In this document: positions 30,346 through 45,249 of the stretch, one piece after another
How the letters are laid out: every line of letters starts with the position of its first letter
Position numbering within the stretch: the stretch's first letter is position 1
Assembly (NCBI GenBank): GCA_964387885.1
Contig: CAYLYZ010000005.1
Location: 11,404-75,403 of the forward strand
From: an uncultured bacterium
GTDB taxonomy: Bacteria > Electryoneota > AABM5-125-24 > Hatepunaeales > Hatepunaeaceae
Length of the DNA: 64,000 nt
Reading direction: 5' to 3'
The notes under the pieces: generated by a model
Database searches by the model: none
Seen by the model: only the letters and a program-made list of their open reading frames with translations
What the model was told of the DNA's origin: nothing
Translations under genes and position numbers: made by a program

Positions 30346-32580
30346 ATGAAAACTCTCAAATTCAGTTTAATTTTAATTTTTATTATTAATACTACAGCCT
30401 ATGTGCAACCCCAGAACGATTGGGTCAGAACTTATGATCTGGGGAGGGAAGATGCAATAAAGGACATTTACCGAATGCAAAATGGTGATTTGGCAACTTG
30501 CGGAGTCACGAGGGATCATTGGAACCACAATAATCTGAGCAGTCAGATTTGGTTGATGCGACTTGAAGATAATGGTAATATTATATGGTCAAATACTTAT
30601 GGAGATGAAGATATTTGTGAATCATTCTGGTCTTTGATTGAAGCCGATAATGGTGATATTTTATCAGTTGGTTTTTCATATTCAGATGATGATTATAGAA
30701 CAGCAGCTATCAGAACGGATTCTGAAGGTGAGGAGATCTGGAGGCGAACATATAATGGGATAGAATTTAACGCTATTATTGAATTAAAAAGTGGTGATTT
30801 TGTTATGTGTGGATATGATTCTGAAAATCGAAATCCTGATGGCTTATTAATTTGCATTGATGGAGATGGGGAAATACTCTGGAGAAGAATGTATGATTTT
30901 GGAGGATCTGAGTTCTTTTATTCAATGAGGGAAACGGATGGCGAAGTGGTGGTTACCGGAGATATTTCATTTGATGATTGGTCATCCGTTTGCGTGCTAA
31001 AGGTTGATGCTGAACAAGGTGATATAATCTGGTCGAGAGTGCACAGACTGGAGTCACCTGCACTCGGTCTCTCTATGGTCTCAGTGCGAGACGGAGGTTT
31101 TGCTATTACCGGTTATTCTGCTATTGGCCGTGATTCCGACTTTTTACTTCTAACGGTTGACAATCAGGGTTTTGAGGAGTGGAATCGGTCCTATGATATC
31201 GAAGGTCAAAACACTCCGGACATGTCGTATTGCATCGCACGTTTGAGTGATCAGGGATATGCTCTTGCCGGGAGTAGCAATCAGTGGACAAATGCTATTG
31301 TGCTTAAAGTTGACGCTGGAGGAGATTTAGAATGGTCTCGCAATGCCAGCGATATTATGGAAGGTCAAACAACCACCCTTTTCTCATCTGTGGTAGATTG
31401 TATTGATCGTTCAGTTCTAAGCGCAGGCAGAATAAGAGTAGAGGATGGAGATTACGATGGATTACTTGTGAAATTTGTACCGGAACGATCTGCCCCGTTA
31501 ATTATTGAATATCATCCCGATGATACTCTATTGAATGTTCTTCAGGGCGATACAATACAGTTTGATGTTTATGCAATAGATGCCCAGCGTGACTCAATGG
31601 AGTTTATCTGGACAATGGGTGAGGACACCGTATCGGTTGATACTTTTGCAGTTGTAGTGTTTGATGAGTTGGGTGAATTTTCTGTTAACTGCAATGTTTC
31701 CGATACCACCGGATTCACTGAAATAGAATGGGATGTAAATGTCCAGGAGTTTGTAATCAGGGAATTTGCTCCGGATAATCTCGACTTCGCAATCCGGAGA
31801 GGAACATCAATCGGTTTCTCCCTTGATGTCGATGCCCTTGAAGATTTGGACCTTGAGTATCTTTGGACAATAGTTCATAGAAACCAGCAACGGGAAGAAA
31901 TCGGAGAAGATAATCGCGTTTCCGTTCAATTTGATCAAGCAGGTGAGCACCAGGTTCAGGCATTAATATCAGCTCCGGAAACTTCTGAGGAGATTAACTG
32001 GACTATCAATGTCCGCTCTGCAATCTGGTCATGGTGGCCATCTGATCTTGAAATATTGGCTTATGTTGACTCGACTTATGAATTTGTTATTACGCCTTTC
32101 AATGAGAATTCGGATTCACTCGAATACTCCTGGCTGTTTAATGATGAACAATTAGAAAGCGATAGTTCTTTAACAATAATCACATTTCCAGAGGTTGGTC
32201 AGAATGAAATAACATCCATTGTCCACGACGGCATTGAAGCTGATACAATTCGTTGGACAGTCAATGTGGAGGAGTGGTCATTCACAACGGATTTAACGGA
32301 TTTAACGGATTTGCCGTCCTCTCCTGTGTTGTATTCGGCAAGCCCAAATCCGTTTAATGCTTCAATTAAGTTGTCGATGTATTTGCCTCGGAAAAATCAC
32401 GTTTTACTCTCTGTGTTTGATGTCAATGGGCGGGAGGTTTCGCGGTTAGTGGATGGAACTGTTCTGGCAGGGAATCAGTCGGTTATATGGAATGCAAGTG
32501 GTTTTCCGGCAGGGGTTTATGTTGTGCGGATGAAGGTTGGGGGAGTGTCAGAAATACGGAAGGTGGTTTTAGTTCGGTAA
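30346..32580 (+). CDS. T9SS cargo paralog 2. Same architecture as 27103..29346.
   Basis: 744 aa. AGGAGA Shine-Dalgarno. Its last ~245 nt before the divergent tail are identical to paralog 1 (32212-32457 vs 28975-29220). Confidence 0.85.
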   Translation: MKTLKFSLILIFIINTTAYVQPQNDWVRTYDLGREDAIKDIYRMQNGDLATCGVTRDHWNHNNLSSQIWLMRLEDNGNIIWSNTYGDEDICESFWSLIEADNGDILSVGFSYSDDDYRTAAIRTDSEGEEIWRRTYNGIEFNAIIELKSGDFVMCGYDSENRNPDGLLICIDGDGEILWRRMYDFGGSEFFYSMRETDGEVVVTGDISFDDWSSVCVLKVDAEQGDIIWSRVHRLESPALGLSMVSVRDGGFAITGYSAIGRDSDFLLLTVDNQGFEEWNRSYDIEGQNTPDMSYCIARLSDQGYALAGSSNQWTNAIVLKVDAGGDLEWSRNASDIMEGQTTTLFSSVVDCIDRSVLSAGRIRVEDGDYDGLLVKFVPERSAPLIIEYHPDDTLLNVLQGDTIQFDVYAIDAQRDSMEFIWTMGEDTVSVDTFAVVVFDELGEFSVNCNVSDTTGFTEIEWDVNVQEFVIREFAPDNLDFAIRRGTSIGFSLDVDALEDLDLEYLWTIVHRNQQREEIGEDNRVSVQFDQAGEHQVQALISAPETSEEINWTINVRSAIWSWWPSDLEILAYVDSTYEFVITPFNENSDSLEYSWLFNDEQLESDSSLTIITFPEVGQNEITSIVHDGIEADTIRWTVNVEEWSFTTDLTDLTDLPSSPVLYSASPNPFNASIKLSMYLPRKNHVLLSVFDVNGREVSRLVDGTVLAGNQSVIWNASGFPAGVYVVRMKVGGVSEIRKVVLVR

Positions 32581-32654: not shown

Positions 32655-34901
32655 ATGAGACTATTTACTCTGTTGATTCTTAGCTCGTTTCTTGTTTCAT
32701 CTGTCGCTTATACCCAACCCAATGTGGATTGGATTCATACTTATGATACAGGTCGAAAGGAAAGCTTTTGTGACATTTTTACCGTTCCGAATGATGGGTA
32801 CATAATGTGTGGTAGAGCGTTTAATCAGGAACCCACGGATAACAGTGTAGATATGCTAATCGTAAGAATTGACGATGATGGAAATCAACAATGGCATACC
32901 AACATAGGCTTCGAAAATTCAGTTGATGTATTATTTAGTGTAATCAACACTGACCTTGGATCATTTATGTGTGGTGGAAAAGCAGAACCATTTCCTGTAG
33001 AAGATAATGTCAGTCAAACTATTGCAGTTCATTTGGATGCTGACGGGGAGCAAATCTGGCTGAATCGTTTTGCTCAGGGTGAAATTCATGCCGTTATAGA
33101 ATTGAAAAGTGGTGAATTTATTGGCGCAGGATGGTCAAATAGACGAGGATATCTTGTATGTTTTGATATTGATGGTAATGTGATATGGGAAAACCTCTAC
33201 GGAAATAGAAATTCTCAATATTTTTATACAATGAGAGAGACACAGGGAGGTATAGTTGTCGGTGGTAGGTCAAATAGAGCGGCATGGGTAGTGAAAGTAA
33301 GTTTCAATGGAGAACTGATTTGGTCCAGAGAACATCAATTGGAACAATTCAATTGGTTGATTAATATGACCTCATCGAGAGAGGGTGGGTTCGCTTTTTC
33401 AGGTCATTCCTTGTTAAGTGAAGGAAGAGGACTCCATTTATTATTGATGAAAGTTGATGATAACGGGGATTTAGAATGGCACAGAATACATCAATTCGAC
33501 CAGGACCATGTATATGAAACTGGTCCTGGATTAACTCAGATGAATGAAAATGGCTTTACTATAGTTGGACGATACGCTGGGGGAAATTGGAATCAACCAT
33601 CTCACCCTTATGCCGTACGGGTGAATTCTCAGGGAGCAGAACGTTGGAGAGTGATTTATGATATGGAGGATTTCGAGTCGCTAAATAATATTAATGGTGA
33701 GTTTTGGCATGTTACGGCAGCAAATGATGGTTCACTCATTGCTGCTGGACAAGTGCATCATCTGGATGAATCTGAAAATGGATTGGTGATGAAACTTGAA
33801 CCGGACATTTTAGAACCAATGTTTCTCCATTGGGAACCGGAAGATACCTTGCTCGAAGTACTTGAGGGTGACACTATCAACTTCCTTGTGCGTGCAGTTG
33901 ATCAACAGGGTGATGAAATGAGTTATTTGTGGATCATGGGTGAGGATACTCTTTCGACTGACTCAACCACCACCGTAATATTCGATGAAATGGGCGAGTT
34001 TGAGGTACAATGTCAGGTTTCAGATGGTGAGTTCACATCTGCAATTACTTGGTATATTACAGTCGATGATTTTGTCATCCGAGATTATTCTCCGGATGAA
34101 ACCGAACTGGCTGTCAGACGTGGTTTAGAGTTAGAGTTCAGTCTCGTAGCTGAAGCTCTTGCTGAACCAGAAATAACTTACGAATGGCTGTTATTCGACA
34201 GAAACAACCAGCGTCAGGAACTCGGAAATGAGCAGGGAATAACCACACATTTTGAAATGACCGGTGTTCACCGGCTGGAGGGATGGGCTTTGCACGGAGA
34301 AGATGCGAAGTCAGTTGTATGGACAATTGAAGCGCATTCCATCGTCTGGTGGTGGTGGCCTCATGAATTTGAACTGTCTGTCCGGCAGGACACAACGATG
34401 GTTTTCGAGGTTTTTCCTTTCAATGAAGAATCCGATTCTCTTGAATATGCATGGTATCTCAACAACGAAGCTTTAGACTGTGACACTTCTCTTATTGAAA
34501 TCTCCTTCCCAGAGATTGGTACCTGCGAGATCACAGCCCATGCCCAGGAAGGAATCGAAGCTGACACCATAAGATGGACTGTGGAGGTTATTGAACGGTC
34601 ATTCACAACGGATGAAACAGATTTAACGGATTTACCGACTTCACCGGTGCTATATCCGGCAACTCCTAATCCGTTTAATTCTTCGGTTAAGTTGTCGATG
34701 TGTTTGCCTCATGCGGATCGTGTTTTGCTCGCGGTGTTCGATGTTAATGGACGAGAGGTTTCGCGATTGGTGGATTGGAATGTCGGGGCGGGAAATCAAT
34801 CGTTTGTATGGAATGCAAGTGGTTTTCCGGCAGGTGTTTATGTGGTGAGGATGGATGTTGGGGATGTGTCGGAAATTCGGAAGGTTGTTTTAGTTCGATA
34901 A
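32655..34901 (+). CDS. T9SS cargo paralog 3, more diverged. Same architecture.
   Basis: 748 aa. HAVIELKSGEFIGAGW. Ig-like LLEVLEGDTINFLVRAVDQQGDEMSYLWIMGEDTL. C-terminus TPNPFNSSVKLSM...AGVYVVRM. Confidence 0.85.
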   Translation: MRLFTLLILSSFLVSSVAYTQPNVDWIHTYDTGRKESFCDIFTVPNDGYIMCGRAFNQEPTDNSVDMLIVRIDDDGNQQWHTNIGFENSVDVLFSVINTDLGSFMCGGKAEPFPVEDNVSQTIAVHLDADGEQIWLNRFAQGEIHAVIELKSGEFIGAGWSNRRGYLVCFDIDGNVIWENLYGNRNSQYFYTMRETQGGIVVGGRSNRAAWVVKVSFNGELIWSREHQLEQFNWLINMTSSREGGFAFSGHSLLSEGRGLHLLLMKVDDNGDLEWHRIHQFDQDHVYETGPGLTQMNENGFTIVGRYAGGNWNQPSHPYAVRVNSQGAERWRVIYDMEDFESLNNINGEFWHVTAANDGSLIAAGQVHHLDESENGLVMKLEPDILEPMFLHWEPEDTLLEVLEGDTINFLVRAVDQQGDEMSYLWIMGEDTLSTDSTTTVIFDEMGEFEVQCQVSDGEFTSAITWYITVDDFVIRDYSPDETELAVRRGLELEFSLVAEALAEPEITYEWLLFDRNNQRQELGNEQGITTHFEMTGVHRLEGWALHGEDAKSVVWTIEAHSIVWWWWPHEFELSVRQDTTMVFEVFPFNEESDSLEYAWYLNNEALDCDTSLIEISFPEIGTCEITAHAQEGIEADTIRWTVEVIERSFTTDETDLTDLPTSPVLYPATPNPFNSSVKLSMCLPHADRVLLAVFDVNGREVSRLVDWNVGAGNQSFVWNASGFPAGVYVVRMDVGDVSEIRKVVLVR

Positions 34902-35055: not shown

Positions 35056-35089
35056 ATAAAAAAATCCCCGGGCAATGAATAGCCCGGGG
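35056..35089 (-). terminator. Rho-independent terminator of lepB on the minus strand: GCCCCGGGC-tattcatt-GCCCGGGG followed by TTTTTTTATAT.
   Basis: Plus-strand sequence aaaaaaatCCCCGGGCaatgaataGCCCGGGG. The hairpin plus T-run is on the minus strand. Confidence 0.65.
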
Positions 35090-35150
35090 CACACACCTTC
35101 CTGTTCCTCAAGCAGGGACGCTTGAGCTACTTGAATAGATTTCCGAGGAG

Positions 35151-35975
35151 CTACCTTATTAAATTCCCGATCCTGTCCCAGCGGATTTTCTTGTGGAGTT
35201 TGTTGAAAGGCATGTATTTATCATGTGAGAAGTAGATAACTAATGCCTTTCCTATTACTTTTTCACGCGGCAGGAAACCCCAGTAGCGGCTGTCCTGAGA
35301 ATTGTCCCGGTTATCCCCCATTACAAACAGGTGCCCTTCAGGTACGGTAACAGGACCATAGTTATCCTTGTTTCGTCGTGTCAGATTTGTAGGATATATC
35401 TGCGGATCTACACTGGCGGCAGGCATTGTAAGTGAGCTGATAAACTTTGAATGAGGTGGATTCTCAAAAAGCACTCCATCAATGTAAACCTGCTTATCGC
35501 GAATCTCAACCGTTTGCCCTTCTACAGCAATTAGACGTTTTATATACGACAAATTCGGATCCCGAGGATACCGGAACACGATTATATCACCGGGTTCAGG
35601 TTCTTTAAAAGAAGGCAAACGGAAAAACGGAACGAAAAATCCAACTCTTGTAAAGGGGATTCCGATCCAATCAGGTGACCGAACTCCGTAAACAAATTTG
35701 TTAACAAGGAGAAAATCCCCAACCAACATTGTGTCTTCCATGCTGCTTGTAGGAATCCTGAAGGCTTCGACCACTCCCAGTCGGATGAAGAATACAACTA
35801 CGATAATTGAAACAACAAGCTCCCCCCATTCGCGAACCGGATTCTGCTTCAGCATTTTCCGATGTTCGGTACGCCAATCTACATATTTTTTCCAGAGTGA
35901 TCTATTGTCGCTCTCTTCAGGTGTGACTTCTCTGCCTTTTCCTGCCGGATGAACCGGTTTCTCCTCGTATCCCAC
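35151..35975 (-). CDS. lepB: Signal peptidase I (GTG start).
   Basis: 274 aa. SSMEDTMLVGDFLLVNKF is the catalytic Ser box. IKRLIAVEGQTVE is the Lys box. GDNRDNSQDSRYWGFLP is box E. Confidence 0.85.
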   Translation of the reverse strand: MGYEEKPVHPAGKGREVTPEESDNRSLWKKYVDWRTEHRKMLKQNPVREWGELVVSIIVVVFFIRLGVVEAFRIPTSSMEDTMLVGDFLLVNKFVYGVRSPDWIGIPFTRVGFFVPFFRLPSFKEPEPGDIIVFRYPRDPNLSYIKRLIAVEGQTVEIRDKQVYIDGVLFENPPHSKFISSLTMPAASVDPQIYPTNLTRRNKDNYGPVTVPEGHLFVMGDNRDNSQDSRYWGFLPREKVIGKALVIYFSHDKYMPFNKLHKKIRWDRIGNLIR

Positions 35976-36084
35976 TTTTTATCCTGTCAAATATTAAGTT
36001 GAAATAACACTGTGTATATATTACGATTAAATCTCGTGAAAGTTCCGATGATTTCAGGAGCGCGTTAGATTTGCATGATTACCT

Positions 36085-36846
36085 TCACGGCTCCCTGATC
36101 GCCTCGACAAACACCCAGACCTGTTTGTTTTCCTTATCGAGGGCACGACCAACTGTCCTGAAATTTGCAATTCTGACATCTGTTTTATTGACTGTAACAT
36201 CCACCATTTGAGCATCCATTTTCTGCCGGTAATGGTTGACTTCGCTGTGAATTGAATATGCTGCTTCTACCCGCGCAGCACGCTCAGCTTCCAACCAACT
36301 AAGATTTTGATAATATGAAGTCCTGCATGTTCCGGAGCCACAAGCGATAAAGTCACTGTCCTCAATACATTTTCTCGCTTCCTGAACTGTAGGTGAATGT
36401 GCAAGCTCTTTGTCTAAATTCACAGGATCTGTCGCAACTAAAACTGCAACAAATTTACCGCGATGGACAGAATCTAAGTGAGTAACACTATTAGCAAAGC
36501 TCTCCAATCCGGATTCGTCAATCCTGAAATCAGCGATTTCTCCCAATGAGAAGGTTCCCGTTGATCCGGAACCTTGGGCTCGTTCACCCTTGACTCTGCA
36601 TCCGTGATCTATATACAAGCGTCTGATAGCATCACTGAACGCTTCCTCATAACTGGATTCCATGTTACGAACATAACTCTGAGCAAATCCAACGGCAAAT
36701 CTTATCCCATCAACCTCCGGTGTTTCCCAGAACCAGCGAGGCATTAATTGGTCTTCTCCCCCAAATGCAATACTAACAGAAACCAGAGTTACTGAGAGAA
36801 TCAAAATTATTCTATAAACCGGATGCAAATTTTGACGGAAATTCAA
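36085..36846 (-). CDS. Secreted LPP20-like domain protein with a signal peptide and no lipobox.
   Basis: 253 aa. MPRWFWETPEVDGIRFAVGFAQS...YEEAFSDAIRRL fits the Lpp20/FlgP-like pattern (P.W...G.G....A...A...L). Confidence 0.55.
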   Translation of the reverse strand: MNFRQNLHPVYRIILILSVTLVSVSIAFGGEDQLMPRWFWETPEVDGIRFAVGFAQSYVRNMESSYEEAFSDAIRRLYIDHGCRVKGERAQGSGSTGTFSLGEIADFRIDESGLESFANSVTHLDSVHRGKFVAVLVATDPVNLDKELAHSPTVQEARKCIEDSDFIACGSGTCRTSYYQNLSWLEAERAARVEAAYSIHSEVNHYRQKMDAQMVDVTVNKTDVRIANFRTVGRALDKENKQVWVFVEAIREP

Positions 36847-36881
36847 GTCTAATCCTTTAGAACAGCTTCAGTAAATAAATA

Positions 36882-36995
36882 GAAGGGGAAGTACATGTTG
36901 TATTTCCCCTTCTTAAATCATTCGTAACCAGAATGGGACGGATAGTTATTTAATCGCTCCCTGATTATCGGGGAGGACGAGTATACCTACTCGTC
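36882..36995 (-). other. Intra-operon intergenic region with consecutive perfect hairpins: GAAGGGGAA-N13-TTCCCCTTC and GACGAGTA-tacc-TACTCGTC. Each is followed by TCTTAAATC on the plus strand.
   Basis: Seen directly. Lies between the 36085..36846 start and the 37101..37679 stop. Confidence 0.5.
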
Positions 36996-37016
36996 TTTCT
37001 TAAATCCTATTCCTTT

Positions 37017-37041
37017 GCGGATAGTATATCCGCACTCCCCC
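37017..37041. repeat. Hairpin element GCGGATA-gta-TATCCGC followed by ACTCCCCC. A second copy is at 61115-61140.
   Basis: 7-bp perfect stem plus the conserved ACTCCCC tail in both copies. Confidence 0.55.
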
Positions 37042-37100
37042 GTTTACTTCACTTCTACACTGGTCACACGCAGAAAAATTCAAACGAGACAACTATTGGT

Positions 37101-37679
37101 TTAGTTGTTCTGTTTGAATTCCTCGAATTTTTCTACTTCTTTTTCCATTTCCTCAAATGCCTGACTGGCACGGAATCGCGTATAGAGCTCTTCCTTTTTC
37201 TTGAGGTTGTTCATCAACGCCTGGGCACTTTCACCAATTGGGTATTTAAAGAGGACGTAAACATGCATGATCCGTCCGTCCTGGCGCACATCGATTTCCA
37301 CTTGTTTTACCCCGCGGAGAGTAGTGGCGACAACTTCTTTTGTCGCAGATGTGAATTGATCGAGCATTTGCGATGCATCATCATCACCCATTATCTCTTC
37401 CTGGAATCGCTTTGTAAGATTGTTAAGTCTCAGTTCCTGTTGCTTGGCAATTGCCGTCCGCGCTGCAGTATTTGCTTTCTCTTTCGCCATACCGAGGTCG
37501 GAAGACTTGCCTTCACCGGTTCCCCAGAGGTGATCCGGATCTTCAGGTGGCATCAGATACCAATCCGGGAGATTGAGGGAATTCGCATCTTCTTTAACTG
37601 GCGGAGCAGATCCACCACATCCCCAGAAGGTCATGCTGACAAACAACATCACTACAGCTAAGCAAATTAATCTTTTCAT
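37101..37679 (-). CDS. LPP20-like outer-membrane lipoprotein (lipobox FWGC).
   Basis: 192 aa. LPDWYLMPPEDPDHLWGTGEGKSSDLGMAKEKANTAARTAIAKQQ resembles H. pylori Lpp20 (PDWV..G.......A...A.A.LA). Confidence 0.6.
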   Translation of the reverse strand: MKRLICLAVVMLFVSMTFWGCGGSAPPVKEDANSLNLPDWYLMPPEDPDHLWGTGEGKSSDLGMAKEKANTAARTAIAKQQELRLNNLTKRFQEEIMGDDDASQMLDQFTSATKEVVATTLRGVKQVEIDVRQDGRIMHVYVLFKYPIGESAQALMNNLKKKEELYTRFRASQAFEEMEKEVEKFEEFKQNN

Positions 37680-37966
37680 TTTAACTCCTCTTACTTTGAT
37701 TATTGTAAGAATTTAAACTTCTGCGTAATCGTCGCATTCTGAGAGATTCTCATTCAGATCAGATCACATTTTATTTCAATCCTGGAACATACTCAAGGAC
37801 GTTTCAAATCTTCTAACAGAACATGATGGCTAACTGTATTAATAATATAGGTAATTATCGCAGATAAACAATCTTAAGCGACCTGCAGTTATCATTAATT
37901 CCGGCTCTAAATTGTACTCGAAACCAGCCAAAATACCCCGGATTCAGCATGGAATTGAACCAAACT

Positions 37967-39487
37967 CTACATGGTATTCTGCTTTTGCCTGTGTGTTTCC
38001 CTTATTTTTTTTATCAGTTCACGGGCTGAAGAGACCTTCTCTCCGGCTGTAACCTTTGATAAATGCCTCATGGCTTCACTGTAGTTGCCTTGATCGAAAC
38101 AAGTCTTGCCTTTTTCATATTCTTCTCTGGATACCTTTGAATTCACTTTATTAAGCTTTTCTCCTGCACCAGCTAATAATTTCGCCATTTGTTTCCTGGC
38201 AATTTTCAGCTTCTTATAAGATTTGTCAATCGCTTTCTTTGCTGATTTCTTGTCAAGTCCATTAGCAGTAATGGAAAGACTGCCAACTAATTCATCCGAT
38301 GTTTTCACCTTCATGAACAGGTCAAGTTCTGTCTTAACCTGATACATTTTTCCGTCAAATCCATCAACTTCATTTGCTTCAACAGGTACCATTGTCCCCG
38401 TTAGCAAATACGGAGCATCTTCACTTATATAGTGTCCGAGTTTGGTAACAGATTTGGAAACGGTACTCTCAGCTTTTTCAATTCGATCCCCATTTTCATC
38501 GAGTATCTCAACTGTAAATGAGACCGGATTCGTTTCAGATATGTCATATCTGAAAACCGCTTCCAGATCACTCAAATCTTTTTTAAAAACTGGCGGAATT
38601 TTAAGTGGATCAATGGATATTGAAGCCTTGCCTTTTTCATCTCCGATGGCTTCAATCCAGAATTCTACCTTCCCATTAACATCGGTATATAGCCGCTCAC
38701 TTGTTTTTCGCTCTTCATCTTTTATCCTCAGTCGGACATTTGGCATTTCGATTTCGTCGTCACCGTAATTCACTCCGACGACCAATGGTTCAGTGAGCAA
38801 ATATCCGTTCTTCCCGATTTGTTTATCTCCCGAAACCTTTTCAAGTTTGATCCTCCCGAGCACCTTTCTGACTTCGGAAAGAATAGCAGGACCGGCCATT
38901 GCTTCAACACCGTAAGGTATTCTCGAAAATGCATTATACAGGGAAGCTCTCGCAATAAGATCAGCAACAAGCTCATCGGTACCCATTAACATTTCCAATG
39001 CTTCAAAGACTTTGCCCTCACCAAGCATATCTTTGCTGTCATCTCGAATTTTTTGAATTACAGACCGTTTCTGGTCAAGTTCACCTTTTAAATCACGAAG
39101 AAAGTCGGCTTTTGAAAGAGCTAGCATAAGATAATAATCTTCACCATCTCGTTCCTTTTCTATTACCTGCGCACCGCGGATAGTTACACTCGTGAAAGAT
39201 TTAGTTGCAGATTTAAAGGTCTCAACGATGTGCTCCCTGTCATCGACAATGTAGGACTCGAGAAAGGTCTGCGATTCAGCTTCGATTTTAATTTCAATCT
39301 GGCCAGCGAGATCCGCTCCGGCTTTCTCCTGTGCAATATCATATGTTGAACCTGAACCAACACCAATGATGTGGGTTTCAGGATCAACCTGATTATATTC
39401 ATAAGAAATGAACCATTTTGGCGGACCAGCTACAACGCATCCGACTAAAAGAAAAAAGATGACAGCTGTCAAGTTTCTGTATATCAT
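37967..39487 (-). CDS. Lipoprotein with an N-terminal LPP20-like domain and a long C-terminal helical/TPR-like extension (lipobox LVGC).
   Basis: 506 aa. PPKWFISYEYNQVDPETHIIGVGSGSTYDIAQEKAGADLAGQIEI ... DGEDYYLMLALSKADF. Confidence 0.6.
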   Translation of the reverse strand: MIYRNLTAVIFFLLVGCVVAGPPKWFISYEYNQVDPETHIIGVGSGSTYDIAQEKAGADLAGQIEIKIEAESQTFLESYIVDDREHIVETFKSATKSFTSVTIRGAQVIEKERDGEDYYLMLALSKADFLRDLKGELDQKRSVIQKIRDDSKDMLGEGKVFEALEMLMGTDELVADLIARASLYNAFSRIPYGVEAMAGPAILSEVRKVLGRIKLEKVSGDKQIGKNGYLLTEPLVVGVNYGDDEIEMPNVRLRIKDEERKTSERLYTDVNGKVEFWIEAIGDEKGKASISIDPLKIPPVFKKDLSDLEAVFRYDISETNPVSFTVEILDENGDRIEKAESTVSKSVTKLGHYISEDAPYLLTGTMVPVEANEVDGFDGKMYQVKTELDLFMKVKTSDELVGSLSITANGLDKKSAKKAIDKSYKKLKIARKQMAKLLAGAGEKLNKVNSKVSREEYEKGKTCFDQGNYSEAMRHLSKVTAGEKVSSARELIKKIRETHRQKQNTM

Positions 39488-39490
39488 GAA

Positions 39491-40786
39491 TTACTCCATC
39501 TCGACTTTGAATATTAAGAGTTTACCGGTTCGGTTAACTTCTCTTAGTACTCCATCGGAGAACTCTTCCTCAAACATCTTTCTTAGTTTTCGCGATACTT
39601 TTGAGGGTTTCGCATATTTTTCGTTATCAACCCATATTAAATAATCGAGTGTCTGGGATGTAGCAACGACCTCCTTATATCTTTCGTTCTTAGTGATTTC
39701 GTCCAGGATTTCCGCAAAAATATCCTGGATATCCGTAACCTCATCAGCATCGAAATCAGTTGAAATACTCACAATTACTTTGTACTGCAAACCATTCTTA
39801 ATGTCCTCTTTCCAATATGCGGTTGTAAGGCTTAAGACCTTATCCACTCCATCCGCAACAGCATTTTCAATCAGCACCAATTCAGGATCTGTCGTAGATG
39901 GTGAATAACCGGTGGCAGATCCCAACAAGCGTGATGTGGTCGTCTCGTATGCGTTTACGTTTATTATTGCCTTTTTGGTTCCAAACTTGTCATCTGCGAC
40001 ATTTATCTTGTAAGTAATATAAATATCACTGCCAATCGACAGTGCTAACCGATACGAATAATCCTCTTCTACATCTCCTAATGATTGCTGAGCTGCGGAA
40101 AAATCGGCTATCTTTGAAGACTGCTCGGGAACAATAACATCGTATCTTTTTGTTGAGAGATACTCCTTGATTACCGTAGCTCCCTGCTGGAGCTTCGGAT
40201 CTGACTGAAGAACATCAATTGGATTTTTCCCTTTCTTAACTTCAGGTAAAACCATAATATTTGGCAGTCCCATTTCTTCAGCAAGTTCAGCCTTGATGAT
40301 ACCTTGGGCAACGAATTCATTTCGAATTGCCTCTCGGTTCACCTTGAATGCCTTTTCAATGAGCAGCTCATATTTCCTTTTCTTCTTAATTTCACGCTTG
40401 GTGCGTTTAAGAAGTTCCGTACCTTCCCAGGCTATAAACCTGCGGAGGTTTTCAAGCTCAAAGAAAGATTCCTGAATTTCAGTGAATGCGAGTTTTTCTT
40501 CAGCTTGAGTAAGTAATGGAGTTGTACCACCGAGGATTACGAAGTATACTGCAGTTCTGCGAGCATCATCTTCAGCACTTTTAAGTAGATAATTCTCGCG
40601 ATCTTTTGATTTGGAGTCACCCTTTTCCCAGATACCAGTCCCTCCGGCGTAAACCATTAATTCCATTGGGTTGGCAGATTCTATCAGTGTCCCTTGTTTG
40701 GAACGAGGCATGTTGCTGCCATCAATTTCAAATGCTAATCCTGAAATCAGACAGACTATCACTGCCAGACCTATCCATCGTGTCAT
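39491..40786 (-). CDS. Secreted/periplasmic K/E-rich coiled-coil protein of unknown function. Start probably at MTRWIGLAVIVCLISGLAF.
   Basis: About 430 aa. Signal peptide. 4-nt gap to the downstream gene suggests translational coupling. No family recognised. Confidence 0.55.
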   Translation of the reverse strand: MTRWIGLAVIVCLISGLAFEIDGSNMPRSKQGTLIESANPMELMVYAGGTGIWEKGDSKSKDRENYLLKSAEDDARRTAVYFVILGGTTPLLTQAEEKLAFTEIQESFFELENLRRFIAWEGTELLKRTKREIKKKRKYELLIEKAFKVNREAIRNEFVAQGIIKAELAEEMGLPNIMVLPEVKKGKNPIDVLQSDPKLQQGATVIKEYLSTKRYDVIVPEQSSKIADFSAAQQSLGDVEEDYSYRLALSIGSDIYITYKINVADDKFGTKKAIINVNAYETTTSRLLGSATGYSPSTTDPELVLIENAVADGVDKVLSLTTAYWKEDIKNGLQYKVIVSISTDFDADEVTDIQDIFAEILDEITKNERYKEVVATSQTLDYLIWVDNEKYAKPSKVSRKLRKMFEEEFSDGVLREVNRTGKLLIFKVEME

Positions 40787-40918
40787 TATATTTCCCTCCG
40801 GTAGAATTCTCAAAGGACCTGCATTATTACAAAAATATAAAGTTCTCACTTCGCAGAGTCAATAGGAAAAAAAGGCACTATTATACCTAATTCAATGACA
40901 GCCTCGAACAACAGACCG

Positions 40919-42094
40919 TCATTCACGCGATTCCCAATAGCGTTTAACACCCTTGAAAGCATGATAAGCACCGAGAATCCCAGCGATATTCATCGCCAAA
41001 AAGTGAAAAGCTGATGTTGCAAATATCACCCGTTTTCCGAATTTATCCAGAAAGCCACCAATTAAGGCTAAAATAATAATTGCACCAATCAAAATCGCCG
41101 TTGTTTGATAAAACGGGCAGAAATCACATATCAAGAAAATAGAGACTGCTCCTGAAGCAAATAGAAATGGACTTATCCAACGCAATATTTTATAACATAT
41201 TACGAGGATAAAATCAAGAAATCCCGCTTTCCAACTAAGGCTTAAAACCCTTGGTATACTAAGGAAATTATATGCCGCCATCCTGGTTCGACGACCAAAT
41301 TCCGCTTTTATAGTATCAAGGGTCTCTTCTGATGCACTTGCCTCAGGAATCATCAATACCCTATATCCCAAAGCTCTGACTTCAAGAGGAATCACAAGGT
41401 CATCATGAACAGGCGTGCTCCCGAGAGGTCTAAATAATTTTTTCCTGAGCGAGTAAAATCCACCAAAGGCTCCGATAACTCTTCCCAACTTGCTAAGCCC
41501 GATTTTTATATTGCTCTCATACCCGGCAAATTGTCCCTCACCCTCTACATTTTTACCGGATAATGGTGGAATCCGATTTAAAACACCACAAACTGCGCCA
41601 ACACGAGGATCACTATAGGGTTGAATCAGTTTTTTTATTGCATTTTTTCTAAACTCAATGTTTGCATCTGTAATTACCACAATATCATGCTTCGCAATTG
41701 GAATAATTGAATCCAGTATGCCGAACTTCCCGCTTCGATCAGGCATTTCAATCAACTCGACTCCACGATCAACATAGGATCGCACAATTTCAACAGTTCT
41801 GTCATTTGATTGATCGGAAGCAATCAGAATCTGCAACTTCTCTTTGGGATAATCGCTTTCGAGCAGATTTTCAATTCTTGCACCAATATGATTTTCTTCA
41901 TTATGAGCAGGAACCAGGACGGTAACTGAGGGTAGATTGTCATCATTAAATGCACGTATGTCCGTCGGTTTTTTGCGGTAAACTATCGGAGCAATCAGTT
42001 TAAGGAATAAATACGGAAAACCGATATATGTAATGAAAACACCTAATACCGATATCCAGAAAATAATTGAGGCCGTTGCCTGAATGTTGGTCAT
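40919..42094 (-). CDS. Family-2 glycosyltransferase with N- and C-terminal TM helices (processive polysaccharide synthase-like, PgaC/BcsA/HAS type).
   Basis: VLVPAHNEE...DRTVEI (DxD region), ITDANIEF, FGRRTRMAAY (QxxRW-like), C-terminal multi-TM region. The ATG at 42094 overlaps the upstream TGA (ATGA coupling). Confidence 0.75.
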   Translation of the reverse strand: MTNIQATASIIFWISVLGVFITYIGFPYLFLKLIAPIVYRKKPTDIRAFNDDNLPSVTVLVPAHNEENHIGARIENLLESDYPKEKLQILIASDQSNDRTVEIVRSYVDRGVELIEMPDRSGKFGILDSIIPIAKHDIVVITDANIEFRKNAIKKLIQPYSDPRVGAVCGVLNRIPPLSGKNVEGEGQFAGYESNIKIGLSKLGRVIGAFGGFYSLRKKLFRPLGSTPVHDDLVIPLEVRALGYRVLMIPEASASEETLDTIKAEFGRRTRMAAYNFLSIPRVLSLSWKAGFLDFILVICYKILRWISPFLFASGAVSIFLICDFCPFYQTTAILIGAIIILALIGGFLDKFGKRVIFATSAFHFLAMNIAGILGAYHAFKGVKRYWESRE

Positions 42095-45000
42095 GGCAGA
42101 GTTTTCATCATTTGATCTGCTTTTTGTCCCCAATGATCAACACCATGTGTTGATTTAACTCTCTCAAGCAGTCTTTGTGCATCCGGAATTTTATCAATGT
42201 CTATCATCAACCGGGCAGCTTCAATTTGGGCATGTGCAATCCAATCCACATATGCTTCAAATAAATATCGAACCTTTAAATAACCATCTATTGCTTCCTG
42301 GGTTCTCCCTAATTGAGATAGAATTCGACCCGTTTCAAATTGCGCCTCAGCTCCGACCTCATCTGATCTCTCCACTGAAATTCGCATCACCCTTTCCAAC
42401 GCTTCTTCACTTCGTCCCAGATCTGATAATGCTCGCGCAGTTTCAACCTCGGCTCTGGCAGAGATTGGATCTAATGATTTTTCTGTGATTAGTTGTTTAA
42501 GCAGCTCTAATGACTGGTCAGGTTTCCCGAAAGCTCGCAGGATCGTACCTTCGAGAAGTCTTGCTTCACGGGCAATCTCCGCAGTTGGATGATTGGTGCG
42601 AATTCTAATAAAAAATGGCAGAGACGCCGTTGAATCTCCAAGTCCCACCTGAACCTGTCCGGAAAAAAATAGTGCTTGTGGTGTGAGAGAATGGTTGGTA
42701 AATCGCTTTTCCATTTCCGCCCATGTGTTAAGCGCTTCAATGGAATCCATCGCCCCAAGATGAGCTCTCCCTTTCCAGAGAAATGCTGCAGGAGCTAATT
42801 CGCTCTCCGGATAATGCTGAATCAACCTTTCATATGCACCCGCAGCATGTAAATAGTCACCGTTATTATACAGCAGATCACCTATTCGCATGGCAAGATC
42901 ATCAACCAGAGGACTGTCCGGATTGTCTTCGGCAAATTGATCTGCGACCTTCATAGCCCGATCCATATCTCCGAGTTGGACAGCACACCACTGCAATCCA
43001 CTGATAGCATCTCCGACTATCGGAGAATCCGGGAAGTCACTGATAACTCTCTCATATCCATCAGCAGCTTCTTTGAAGCGTTTCAGATTATAGAGCGCAT
43101 CAGCATAGCCATAGGTAGCTTGTGGCAGATAGGGTGAAGAAGAAAAGGTCAAAGAGAACTCTGTATACTTCTCTGCAGCTTCTTCAAAACGTTCGGCTCT
43201 GAAGAGTGACCACCCTACCATATACAGAGCATCATCCCCGAGTTCAGAACCGGGATATGCATCTGCATGAAAGCTGAACCCACCGGCAGCTTCGCTGAAT
43301 CGATCGAGTTTCAGGAGCGTCACTGCCCATTGATAATGTGCCCTGAGATGCTCATCTCCATCGGGATATTTAGTATAAAATCGTCGATATGCCTCTTCTG
43401 CTCGCTTATAATCCTTCGCACTGAAACGACTGTCTGCAATTCTAAGCTCAGCATCAAGAGCATATTTACTATCCGGATGCTTCTCAATAAAATCTGTAAA
43501 CATATCTGCAGCCGTTCCAAACTCACCGTTTTTATAAAGTGCCCATCCTCGACCATATCTGGCTTCTTCAATCATTGCACTTTCCGGGAAACGCTGAATC
43601 AATGAACGATATGCGGACTCAGCTCCTCGCGCATCACCGGCATTGTATCGCGTTTCACCCAACCAGAATAATGCATCCTGAATACGGTCTGAATCAGGAT
43701 ATTTCTCTATCAGGTCTTCATAATATTTTGCAGCCTGTTCATTGTTTTCAGTTTTATGAGAAAGATACCCGACCGAAAACAACATCTCTTCTTCATCTTC
43801 AGGATGAGGATTCAAGCTCAAGCCAATCTTGCACGCTTCAAGAGCGCGATTGTCTTCTCCATCTGATTGCAAGGTTGCGCCCTGTAAACGATAAACCCTG
43901 GCGCGCGATTGATCGTCCATCGGAGCTTGAACAGCTACTTCAAGTGTCTTTGAAGCAACTCTATAATCCCCCAGACGAAAAAGCTCCCTTCCAACCTCAG
44001 TTAATGACATTCCTGCTTCGGGAGACTCTGGCCACTGTTCAGCAACACGCCGCCATAGTTGAAGAGCTCCTTCCTCTTCACCTGCCTTTGATAATGCTGA
44101 TGCAGCCTCATATAACGCCTGAGGAGCAAGATCGCTTTCCGGGAATCTCTCCGCCACCTGAGAAAACCATTTTCCAGCTTCTGGAAATGACTGCAATTCA
44201 GAAGCAATCCAACCAAGTGCAAACATCGATTGTGGAGCCGGATCAGAACTGGAATCGGCTTCTATTACTTTCAGATAATATGACTGTGCCTCAACATGAT
44301 TTTTATTCTCATATTGGATTTCACCAAGCAGAAAATTGGCATGCCGCTTGATTTCCTCTTCGACCTGAAGATTGATGACTTTTTCGAGAAGTTCACCTGC
44401 ACCAGATGAATCCCCGGTTTTATGGCGCAGGAAGCCGGCTCGATATAGGGCAGACGGTGTTGATTCTGCCTGAGGGTAACTCGTCCAGACTATGTAATAT
44501 GCAGCGAGTGCAGCATCGAAGTCACCACGCTGTTCATGGATATATCCGGTTGAATAGGCTGCCCATGGAGTATAGTGATGTTCGGGATACCTATCAACCA
44601 GATTTCGGTAGCTCCGCAAAGCCAGGGAAGTATCGCCCGAAGCCAGAGCAGATTCCCCGGTCCAGTAAATCGCATCCGGTATTAAATGACTGATAGGGTG
44701 ATCAGATTGAAGCCTGGCAAGAGTTGTTTGTGCTTCATCATATTGCCCTGATTCAAATGATGCTTGTCCAATTCTGAGTAACGCTTCATCAACAAGTTCG
44801 GAAAAAGGGTGTTTAGTGACGAAACTATCCATAGCATTCTTGCAAGCTTTCCATCCATTTAGGCGGAAATGACACTCTCCCATCAGATAAAGCGCTTGAG
44901 GAGCTCGGTCACCATCTTGCCAGCGTATAAGATACTCATTGAATCGAGATACCGCTCTCTCAAATTGCCCATCACGATACAAACCAACACCATATGCAAA

Positions 45001-45129
45001 CTCTTTATCTGATTCGGCATTGGCATGTGCTGAACTCGCAAAAATACAGAGCAGAAGAAACAAGATTACTACATTTGAAGCAGAAACCTTTACTCCGCCG
45101 ACATTTTTCCAATCTTGAGAAGGGTTCAA
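42091..45129 (-). CDS. 1012-aa secreted TPR-repeat protein (YbgF/BcsC-N-terminal-like TPR scaffold).
   Basis: Signal peptide. More than 15 TPR-like repeats with W/Y-LG-Y-A-G periodicity (ALYRAGFL..., AQALYEAASAL..., ARYGRGWALYKNGEF...). Confidence 0.85.
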   Translation of the reverse strand: MNPSQDWKNVGGVKVSASNVVILFLLLCIFASSAHANAESDKEFAYGVGLYRDGQFERAVSRFNEYLIRWQDGDRAPQALYLMGECHFRLNGWKACKNAMDSFVTKHPFSELVDEALLRIGQASFESGQYDEAQTTLARLQSDHPISHLIPDAIYWTGESALASGDTSLALRSYRNLVDRYPEHHYTPWAAYSTGYIHEQRGDFDAALAAYYIVWTSYPQAESTPSALYRAGFLRHKTGDSSGAGELLEKVINLQVEEEIKRHANFLLGEIQYENKNHVEAQSYYLKVIEADSSSDPAPQSMFALGWIASELQSFPEAGKWFSQVAERFPESDLAPQALYEAASALSKAGEEEGALQLWRRVAEQWPESPEAGMSLTEVGRELFRLGDYRVASKTLEVAVQAPMDDQSRARVYRLQGATLQSDGEDNRALEACKIGLSLNPHPEDEEEMLFSVGYLSHKTENNEQAAKYYEDLIEKYPDSDRIQDALFWLGETRYNAGDARGAESAYRSLIQRFPESAMIEEARYGRGWALYKNGEFGTAADMFTDFIEKHPDSKYALDAELRIADSRFSAKDYKRAEEAYRRFYTKYPDGDEHLRAHYQWAVTLLKLDRFSEAAGGFSFHADAYPGSELGDDALYMVGWSLFRAERFEEAAEKYTEFSLTFSSSPYLPQATYGYADALYNLKRFKEAADGYERVISDFPDSPIVGDAISGLQWCAVQLGDMDRAMKVADQFAEDNPDSPLVDDLAMRIGDLLYNNGDYLHAAGAYERLIQHYPESELAPAAFLWKGRAHLGAMDSIEALNTWAEMEKRFTNHSLTPQALFFSGQVQVGLGDSTASLPFFIRIRTNHPTAEIAREARLLEGTILRAFGKPDQSLELLKQLITEKSLDPISARAEVETARALSDLGRSEEALERVMRISVERSDEVGAEAQFETGRILSQLGRTQEAIDGYLKVRYLFEAYVDWIAHAQIEAARLMIDIDKIPDAQRLLERVKSTHGVDHWGQKADQMMKTLP

Positions 45130-45220
45130 AGCGTTAAGCTATCTGTTGTTTTTGTGCAGAAATACTGAATATAAATGGAACAGTTCATAATTAGAAAAGT
45201 TCCCAGGTTACACCCGTTGT

Positions 45221-45249
45221 AATATATGCTGTACACAGAGATGTGTCAA
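45221..45249 (-). promoter_or_regulatory. Minus-strand sigma70-like promoter TTGACA-N17-TATATT, positioned to drive the TPR-GT2-LPP20-lepB operon.
   Basis: Reverse complement of 45221-45249 is TTGACAcatctctgtgtacagcaTATATT. Confidence 0.45.

Follow-up and report, generated by a model that had tools for sequence, protein, structure and literature searches.

The flagellar motors of Vibrio and Campylobacter have acquired outer-membrane disks of FlgT, FlgP and FlgQ, and the FlgP family is broad. An SHS2-like fold is common to FlgP, Lpp20 and FlgT, and FlgQ is similar to a repeat of two FlgP units (PMC12222027). In the Vibrio H ring, 26 copies of FlgT are joined by 26 copies of FlgP, with the C-terminal tail of FlgP bound in a groove of FlgT (PMC13626733). 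Here we describe a gene cluster with predicted proteins of related folds in a 64,000-nucleotide (nt) stretch of DNA from an uncultured bacterium of the Electryoneota (GenBank assembly GCA_964387885.1, contig CAYLYZ010000005.1, positions 11,404 to 75,403 of the forward strand; hereafter the window). Four of its genes, encoding a DUF6175 protein, a long and a short protein of the LPP20 family (LPP20-long and LPP20-short) and a protein of 253 amino acids (aa) that we call P253, form the conserved core of an uncharacterised envelope module found throughout the Fibrobacteres–Chlorobi–Bacteroidetes (FCB) group. All four products are predicted to be exported, two of them as lipoproteins, and to have the folds of proteins that assemble into oligomeric rings at the outer membrane's periplasmic face. 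An earlier reading of the window, made from its letters and open reading frames (the sequence-only reading), had suggested that this gene combination is undescribed, and we likewise found no literature on the module; searches on DUF6175 and PF19672, and on LPP20 together with CsgG, DUF799 or DUF4810, gave nothing relevant.

A scan for DUF6175 loci, with one genome per species, returned at least 204, of which 80 were fetched with 10-kb flanks (numbered here with the prefix L). The counts that follow come from tblastn and custom hidden Markov model (HMM) searches of these 80 loci, with the informative loci as denominators. In 60 of 67 loci the gene immediately downstream of DUF6175 is LPP20-long, LPP20-short comes next in 24 of 53, and P253 follows LPP20-short in 17 of 48; in a separate count, the P253 family is 3′ of LPP20-short in 19 of 22 cases. 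DUF6175 has numerous relatives in Calditrichota, Marinimicrobia, Cloacimonadota and Latescibacteria, and the loci come from Calditrichota, Marinimicrobia, Cloacimonadota, Latescibacterota, Zixibacteria, LCP-89, Ignavibacteria, Kryptonia and Bacteroidota. Because the pairing of DUF6175 with LPP20-long is kept across phyla at 40% protein identity, it is not a product of chance. Among 145 genes flanking the module, we found no flagellar structural family, no recurrent polysaccharide genes and no conserved cargo gene; no family occurs in more than 5 of the 145, and glycosyltransferases of family 2 (GT2) occur in 2.

In most loci the module opens with a further family, X570, which lies directly upstream of DUF6175 in 55 of 66 and is almost always the first module gene; in two loci it comes after LPP20-long instead. 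Members of the family, of about 570 aa, occur at L005:8213-9877, L009:8190-9917 and L059:8256-9983 and in 50 more loci. Behind a predicted signal peptide they have a periplasmic region of about 330 aa that is unique to them, with the motifs RFDYNPLP, ATKAKxxGxT and EHPRLGID, and then a predicted small C-terminal β-barrel. The C-terminal region matches OMP_b-brl models weakly in 6 of 21 members, and no Pfam or NCBIfam family covers the protein. X570 is absent from the window, as judged by tblastn with 57 queries and by HMM search; the hits that the queries did produce there are the C-terminal sorting domains of unrelated cargo genes of the type IX secretion system (T9SS), and were discarded.

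The position of X570 is occupied in the window and in four other loci (L006, L013, L166 and L167) by a pair of genes for an exported tetratricopeptide repeat (TPR) protein and a membrane GT2, and relatives with equal DUF6175 divergence (about 52%) carry X570 instead. Profile–profile comparisons of X570 with DUF6175, with LPP20-long and with the TPR protein were all null, as was that of LPP20-long with DUF6175, so X570 is no hidden homologue of the proteins found in its place. The neighbour-joining tree built for DUF6175 does not settle whether the five TPR–GT2 loci form one clade, and we therefore make no claim of a single replacement event.

The make-up of the module varies in two further ways. 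In loci of LCP-89 and Zixibacteria, LPP20-long is replaced by an SLBB protein and a protein with an FlgT_N domain (PF16548; 37 bits, cut-off 28.8); their gene set, seen at L065:4394-9896 and L044:4610-9958 and also in L043 and L054, comprises a UPF0164-like outer-membrane protein, a lipoprotein, an SLBB-domain protein (163 aa), the FlgT_N-domain protein (380 aa), X570 and DUF6175, with the first four of these genes all 5′ of X570. Bacteroidota-type loci have an extra gene between DUF6175 and LPP20-long (L064 and L068; also L051, L060 and L084). At L064:6642-7739 and L068:11296-12498 this is a Big_5 (bacterial Ig-like) protein of 365–400 aa, apparently a lipoprotein, and in L060 the inserted gene resembles an unrelated cytoplasmic enzyme.

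The open reading frame (ORF) of the DUF6175 protein reaches back to a GTG at 40849 (452 aa), and we place the start at the Met codon at 40786 because homologues start there, which gives a protein of 431 aa. PF19672 is matched by 17 of 18 aligned relatives, and the family is of modest extent: 1.84 billion representatives contain 399 clusters of it at 50% identity. The protein had been described as a lysine-rich coiled-coil secreted protein; besides its PF19672 match (53 bits), the AlphaFold2 model, with a predicted local distance difference test (pLDDT) score of 82, has three α/β domains, so this label is rejected. A Foldseek search of the Protein Data Bank (PDB) with the model ranked Vibrio FlgT (3w1e) first, with an E-value of 2e-7 over 334 columns, followed by an LPHT-ring entry, CsgG, HpaA, PelC and PelBC, GNA1162 and CT253. 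The CsgG nonamer chains matched at 3.5e-6 over about 225 columns; for PelC dodecamers and the PelBC transporter, the template modelling (TM) score reached 0.61 on the target, and single domains superpose. The proteins matched are exported and mostly outer-membrane-associated, and FlgT, CsgG and PelC form rings. DUF6175 proteins of roughly double length also occur (L049:8828-11188, P0146 of 829 aa, P0157 of 762 aa and P0271 of 761 aa), and their size suggests that an adjacent gene, perhaps that of X570 or LPP20-long, has been fused to them.

The sequence-only reading had also proposed three consecutive LPP20-like proteins, two with a lipobox and one secreted, and these exist. PF02169, with a gathering score of 25.9 bits, recognises LPP20-long and LPP20-short (36.8 and 36.5 bits; lipoboxes LVGC and FWGC). 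The third, P253, has a plain signal peptide and in the window no Pfam match, and is recognised as LPP20-like only by profile–profile comparison: in its own 18-sequence profile, residues 145–253 align with LPP20-short at 97.9% (E 6e-13) and residues 32–90 at 96.7% (E 3e-10). PF02169 itself is matched by 1 of 6 P253 relatives (1.5e-6). The resulting tandem repeat gives P253 an FlgQ-like architecture. In LPP20-short the lipobox Cys is invariant in 14 of 14 homologues and a C-terminal amphipathic helix is conserved; the corresponding Cys is absent from most LPP20-long homologues elsewhere. LPP20-long comprises an N-terminal LPP20 domain, a helical linker, a β-rich middle, an α/β C-terminal domain and a helical tail. 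Its N terminus aligns with LPP20-short at 99.3% in hhalign, and in its structural model matches HP1454 and Lpp20 of Helicobacter pylori. Word-indexed homologue searches, with the single sequence and with a 22-sequence profile, found 5 close relatives of LPP20-long against more than 60 homologues in the fetched loci; the model is poor because its alignment held 5 sequences only. Hydropathy gives one N-terminal hydrophobic segment each for the TPR protein, DUF6175, LPP20-long, LPP20-short and P253, with GT2 and the signal peptidase LepB as exceptions.

We favour, as an evenly poised proposition, the reading that the module encodes a non-flagellar periplasmic scaffold, a ring or disk tethered to the outer membrane, which is coupled to the TPR–GT2 pair in this clade. 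The lipoproteins would tether an oligomeric ring or disk containing DUF6175 beneath the outer membrane, and the assembly would be a non-flagellar parallel to the Vibrio H ring, where FlgP is bound to the FlgT ring. Most lineages would encode this assembly with the outer-membrane β-barrel protein X570. The Calditrichota-like clade would instead have, in the X570 position, a translationally coupled pair whose products are a very large TPR protein of the periplasm and a GT2 of the inner membrane, which suggests that the scaffold is here linked to the synthesis or handling of a glycan or glycolipid. The wider proposition that X570, DUF6175, LPP20-long, LPP20-short and P253 together are the non-flagellar counterpart, sister or ancestor, of the FlgO/FlgP/FlgQ/FlgT disks, as a periplasmic ring or lattice fixed beneath the outer membrane and with an interchangeable partner module, seems to us possible but doubtful.

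Several points weigh against the scaffold reading. We infer ring formation from fold relatives alone. The Foldseek E-values of FlgT, CsgG and PelC lie only one or two orders of magnitude apart, and the global TM-scores of the DUF6175 matches are low (0.19–0.24) because domain orientations differ; the match may reflect a generic TolB-N-like domain and not specific kinship with FlgT. Pfam and PDB sequence searches gave no sequence-level link from DUF6175 to FlgT, CsgG or PelC, and neither FlgT_N nor FlgT_M nor FlgT_C was matched in Pfam even at E-values up to 10. DUF6175 itself has no lipobox and no lipid anchor, and the LPP20-long model (pLDDT 58) is usable for its N-terminal 220 residues only. 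The GT2 product may be a polymer or a glycolipid. Finally, an X570 gene may lie outside the window in the genome of this organism. On this last point it bears that one metagenome-assembled genome (CAIVNT01, Ignavibacteriae LJ_bin-0454) has two separate DUF6175 loci, L037 and L060, which shows that the module can be present in paralogous copies within one genome.

The TPR–GT2 pair lies 5′ of the module in the five loci named above and in no others; these are Calditrichota-like, with DUF6175 identities to the window of 52–89%. The repeats of the TPR protein span residues 21 to about 916 of 1012 and leave no room for a β-barrel, and Pfam and NCBIfam scans matched no barrel family; the predicted signal peptide agrees with the export claimed earlier. 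Its colinear orthologues (78% identity in L006, 61% in L166, 53% in L013 and 46% in L167) are always 5′ of GT2. The two genes share an ATGA overlap at 42091-42094, as the sequence-only reading had noted, in which the TPR stop overlaps the GT2 ATG; GT2 is thereby set to start at 42094, in agreement with its L006 orthologue. This overlap is conserved within the clade and, together with the 4-nt overlap of GT2 with DUF6175 in L167, points to co-expression. In L166, a relative with 60% identity, a gene for a 216-aa S-adenosylmethionine (SAM) methyltransferase (L166:4227-4877) stands between GT2 and DUF6175, which hints at a methylated GT2 product in that lineage.

Checks against Pfam bore out the assignments of both proteins, with PF00535 at 74 bits and many TPR families above their gathering thresholds. 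Hydropathy shows a hydrophobic segment at the N terminus and hydrophobic helices towards the C terminus (about residues 283–374), in keeping with the membrane-embedded GT2 that had been proposed. The GT-A motifs D94, D143-A-N and H-D231-D are conserved, with Asn as the second Asp of DxD, and the enzyme reads DAN, HDD and RRTRM where DxD, TED and QxxRW are expected. At the position equivalent to QxxRW, assigned from its spacing to the HDD (TED-equivalent) motif and to that extent inferential, four orthologues have RRTRM (window), RRIRM (L006), RRIRL (L013) and RRLRM (L167), the Trp being lost. PF13506 (GT21) is passed at 31.8 bits against a cut-off of 21.7, and the best NCBIfam matches, PgaC (59.7 bits, cut-off 422) and HpnI (57.8 bits, cut-off 310), fall far below their thresholds, as do NodC (40.2 against 550) and CelA (21.6 against 699). 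The closest solved structure is 6yv7, a minimal cellulose-synthase-like mannosyltransferase (E 2e-19). The enzyme had been called processive; the absence of the QxxRW Trp from all four orthologues read, and scores far below the PgaC, NodC and BcsA cut-offs, speak against this. Nor does a conserved linkage of GT2 to its neighbours, on which the sequence-only reading had staked its interpretation, extend beyond the narrow clade of five loci.

The 80 nearest metagenomic relatives of GT2 (at most 38% identity) have neither the module nor the TPR protein nearby. Of the nearest non-orthologous relatives (33–38% identity), those at L088:8481-9953 and L090:8312-9826 lie directly 3′ of genes for B12-binding radical-SAM proteins, and one at L086:4376-6095 lies within a nuo operon, 5′ of a formyltransferase gene and a polysaccharide-deacetylase/DUF3473 gene. 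These neighbourhoods recall the HpnI/HpnJ or Arn lipid-sugar pathways.

Four other explanations were weighed. The sequence-only reading had leaned towards a synthase-dependent exopolysaccharide apparatus of the Pel/Pga/Bcs type. Spelled out, GT2 would polymerise a glycan at the inner membrane, the TPR protein would scaffold it across the periplasm, and DUF6175 and the LPP20 proteins would form a PelC-like funnel at the outer membrane. The structural matches of DUF6175 to PelC and CsgG rings lend unexpected support to the Pel-like side of that interpretation, and the coupled GT2 and exported TPR genes directly 5′ of the module in five loci, the SLBB (Wza-type) domain protein of the LCP-89 variant and the rank of PgaC as top NCBIfam match also speak for it; several defining features are nevertheless missing, and we consider it unlikely. 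About 75 of the 80 module loci have no GT2 or TPR neighbour, the nearest GT2 relatives have neither the module nor the TPR protein, and a Pel/Pga-like role cannot be the general function of the module. At the GT2 itself, the PgaC score and the Met or Leu in place of the QxxRW Trp argue the same way, and the equal score of HpnI, the passing of GT21 and the relatives near B12 radical-SAM genes point equally to lipid glycosylation. The locus also has no outer-membrane porin, deacetylase or cyclic di-GMP receptor, and its TPR protein has no barrel; in agreement with the sequence-only reading, we recognised no outer-membrane barrel, Wza or deacetylase in the window. A CsgG-like secretion channel or export accessory, with X570 or another barrel as conduit for a protein polymer or other cargo, appears improbable to us. 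In its favour, chains of the CsgG nonamer rank among the top structural matches, GNA1162 (DUF799), which partners CsgG-like proteins in operons, is matched too, and the module usually begins with the gene of an outer-membrane barrel protein; yet there is no CsgG match in Pfam, neither a lipobox nor membrane-inserting hairpins were identified in DUF6175, the 145 flanking genes include no conserved cargo gene, and the X570 barrel matches small OMP_b-brl models weakly, and in a minority of members.

Mere juxtaposition, in which TPR–GT2, the module and lepB would be unrelated and kept together by local synteny, with LPP20 and DUF6175 proteins acting separately, is in our view very unlikely. It fits the gaps of 287, 254 and 109 nt that set the last genes apart, the conserved terminator-like hairpin and promoter-like blocks inside the cluster (described below), and the confinement of the TPR–GT2 and lepB linkages to one clade, but it does not fit the pairing of DUF6175 with LPP20-long at 0–4 nt spacing in 60 of 67 loci across phyla, or the gene overlaps in the window and in L167. 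We give hardly any credence to a genuine flagellar accessory, that is, an orthologous set of H-ring or basal-disk proteins, even with FlgT as the top structural match, FlgP within the LPP20 family and an FlgT_N domain in one variant of the module. Neither the window nor the 145 flanking genes contain flagellar genes, an NCBIfam scan returned no flagellar family for the LPP20 and DUF6175 proteins, and DUF6175 gave no FlgT_N, FlgT_M or FlgT_C match in Pfam. The Chitinophagaceae, Cloacimonadota and Marinimicrobia that bear the module are not known as flagellated, which also counts against this explanation.

The features of the cluster are collected in Table 1. Its genes do form a run on one strand, the minus strand, as stated earlier, but seven ORFs were counted within 35151-45129 where an operon of ten genes had been claimed, and no further ORFs fit the gaps. 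A 270-aa plus-strand ORF at 43539-44351 is antisense within the TPR gene and was set aside as spurious; it most probably arose by chance where G+C-skewed DNA encodes the repeats. Tight packing is limited to the first four genes. The description of the genes as nearly overlapping suits TPR/GT2 and DUF6175/LPP20-long and so holds for part of the cluster only, because the remaining spacers measure 132, 287, 254 and 109 nt; the gap at 39487/39491, given earlier as 4 nt, is indeed close, with 3 nt between the DUF6175 stop and the LPP20-long start.

Table 1 Coordinates of genes and candidate regulatory sites of the cluster in the window
Feature	Position	Strand	Basis
Sigma-70-like promoter candidate upstream of the TPR gene	45221..45249	-	TTGACA, 17 nt, TATATT; 11/12 matches
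Exported 1012-aa TPR protein gene	42091..45129	-	Signal peptide, TPR_6/YbgF-like repeats
Membrane GT2 gene, 391 aa	40919..42094	-	PF00535, 74.4 bits (gathering 23.3)
DUF6175 protein gene, 431 aa, exported	39491..40786	-	PF19672, 52.8 bits (gathering 23)
LPP20-long lipoprotein gene, 506 aa	37967..39487	-	PF02169, 36.8 bits; lipobox LVGC
LPP20-short lipoprotein gene, 192 aa	37101..37679	-	PF02169, 36.5 bits; lipobox FWGC
Terminator-like hairpin	36871..36913	-	10-bp stem AGAAGGGGAA/TTCCCCTTCT and T-rich tail, inside the 254-nt spacer before P253
P253 gene, 253 aa, exported, plain signal peptide	36085..36846	-	Two tandem LPP20-like domains
Signal peptidase I (LepB) gene	35151..35975	-	TIGR02227, 153.1 bits (cut-off 47); Peptidase_S26, 175 bits
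Intrinsic terminator candidate 3′ of lepB	35056..35089	-	Stem of 8 G-C pairs at 35066-35089, 8-nt loop, T-run to 35056

The promoter-like and terminator-like sites that had been said to bracket the run, at 45221-45249 and 35056-35089, were both found again in the sequence. Over the region as a whole, such sites are no commoner than in shuffled sequence (24 against 24.5 for promoter-like sites and 10 against 11.2 for terminator-like sites). Both promoter hexamers and the block around them are identical in L006, the contig of the closest relative (89% protein identity to the window), and sequence further upstream diverges. The 254-nt spacer before P253 (36847-37100, minus strand) folds into several hairpins at -79.7 kcal/mol, with a z-score of -4.5 relative to shuffles; only the last of these hairpins, at 36871-36913, is kept in L006, where its stem and tail are preserved but its loop is not, nor is the remaining spacer sequence. 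Promoter-like blocks are also conserved 5′ of LPP20-short and, within the 109-nt spacer, 5′ of lepB. Rfam gave no match anywhere in the window, this structured spacer included. Because of the structured spacer, the conserved hairpin and the internal promoter-like blocks, the cluster is probably transcribed as several units.

As a whole the region is a composite and not one conserved operon. The lepB gene, counted earlier as an operon member, adjoins the module in no relative other than the closest, L006 (a divergent copy lies near L167), and is probably a neighbour and not a component of the module. Elsewhere in the window, three tandem paralogues of about 745 aa on the plus strand (27103-29346, 30346-32580 and 32655-34901) combine PKD domains with a T9SS C-terminal sorting domain, and at least six further large minus-strand ORFs, with ends near 84, 3009, 7302, 14271, 16160 and 19169, have T9SS-type tails, so the window is rich in type IX secretion cargo.

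A non-flagellar module that encodes FlgT-like, FlgP-like and FlgQ-like proteins together would be a candidate source, or a parallel use, of the parts of flagellar disks. If it is the non-flagellar counterpart of those disks, it would represent a new structure of the cell envelope, and a present-day example of the pool that supplied H-ring and basal-disk proteins. X570 and P253 are two newly defined families that lack Pfam or NCBIfam annotation, and the natural swap between a barrel protein and a TPR–GT2 pair offers a handle on what the scaffold connects to. For annotation, the label of a ten-gene exopolysaccharide operon should not be propagated.

Each of the described systems shares some features with the module. 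The CsgG channels and GNA1162 (DUF799) have the same α/β fold class, outer-membrane lipoprotein partners and operons of several small exported proteins without known function; unlike CsgG, DUF6175 has no CsgG match in Pfam, is not a lipoprotein and has three domains in tandem, and no curli-like substrate genes accompany it. The lpp20 operon of H. pylori (HP1454, Lpp20/HP1456 and HP1457) likewise consists of consecutive genes for exported proteins of the Lpp20 fold, and HP1454 and Lpp20 are the best matches of the LPP20-long model, but the operon has no DUF6175 or X570 partner and the sequence similarity is marginal (E 0.11 to 5ok8).

Pel uses a cytosolic glycosyltransferase of family 4 (PelF), not a GT2. 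With Pel (PelC/PelB), Pga and Bcs, the module shares single DUF6175 domains that superpose on the PelC ring subunit and, in this clade, an inner-membrane GT2 encoded with a long periplasmic TPR protein. It differs in that the TPR protein has no fused porin, the seven genes include no PelA/PgaB-type deacetylase or hydrolase, and the cluster has no X570 or other barrel gene and no cyclic di-GMP receptor. The GT2, without the QxxRW Trp, is by score not PgaC, BcsA or NodC, and most genomes that carry the module have no GT2 linked to it.

The Vibrio H ring (FlgT, FlgP and FlgO) and the Campylobacter basal disk (FlgP and FlgQ) differ from the module in that DUF6175 has no sequence similarity to FlgT, no flagellar genes lie nearby, and LPP20-long, at 450–730 aa, has extra β-rich and α/β domains; LPP20-long and X570 matched no flagellar protein here, a comparison that did not include X570 with FlgO. 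Like them, the module sets a three-domain α/β protein with FlgT as its best structural match beside LPP20 lipoproteins and a tandem-LPP20 protein, its products are predicted to be exported and outer-membrane-associated, an outer-membrane protein is usually encoded with them, and one of its variants bears a true FlgT_N domain in Pfam.

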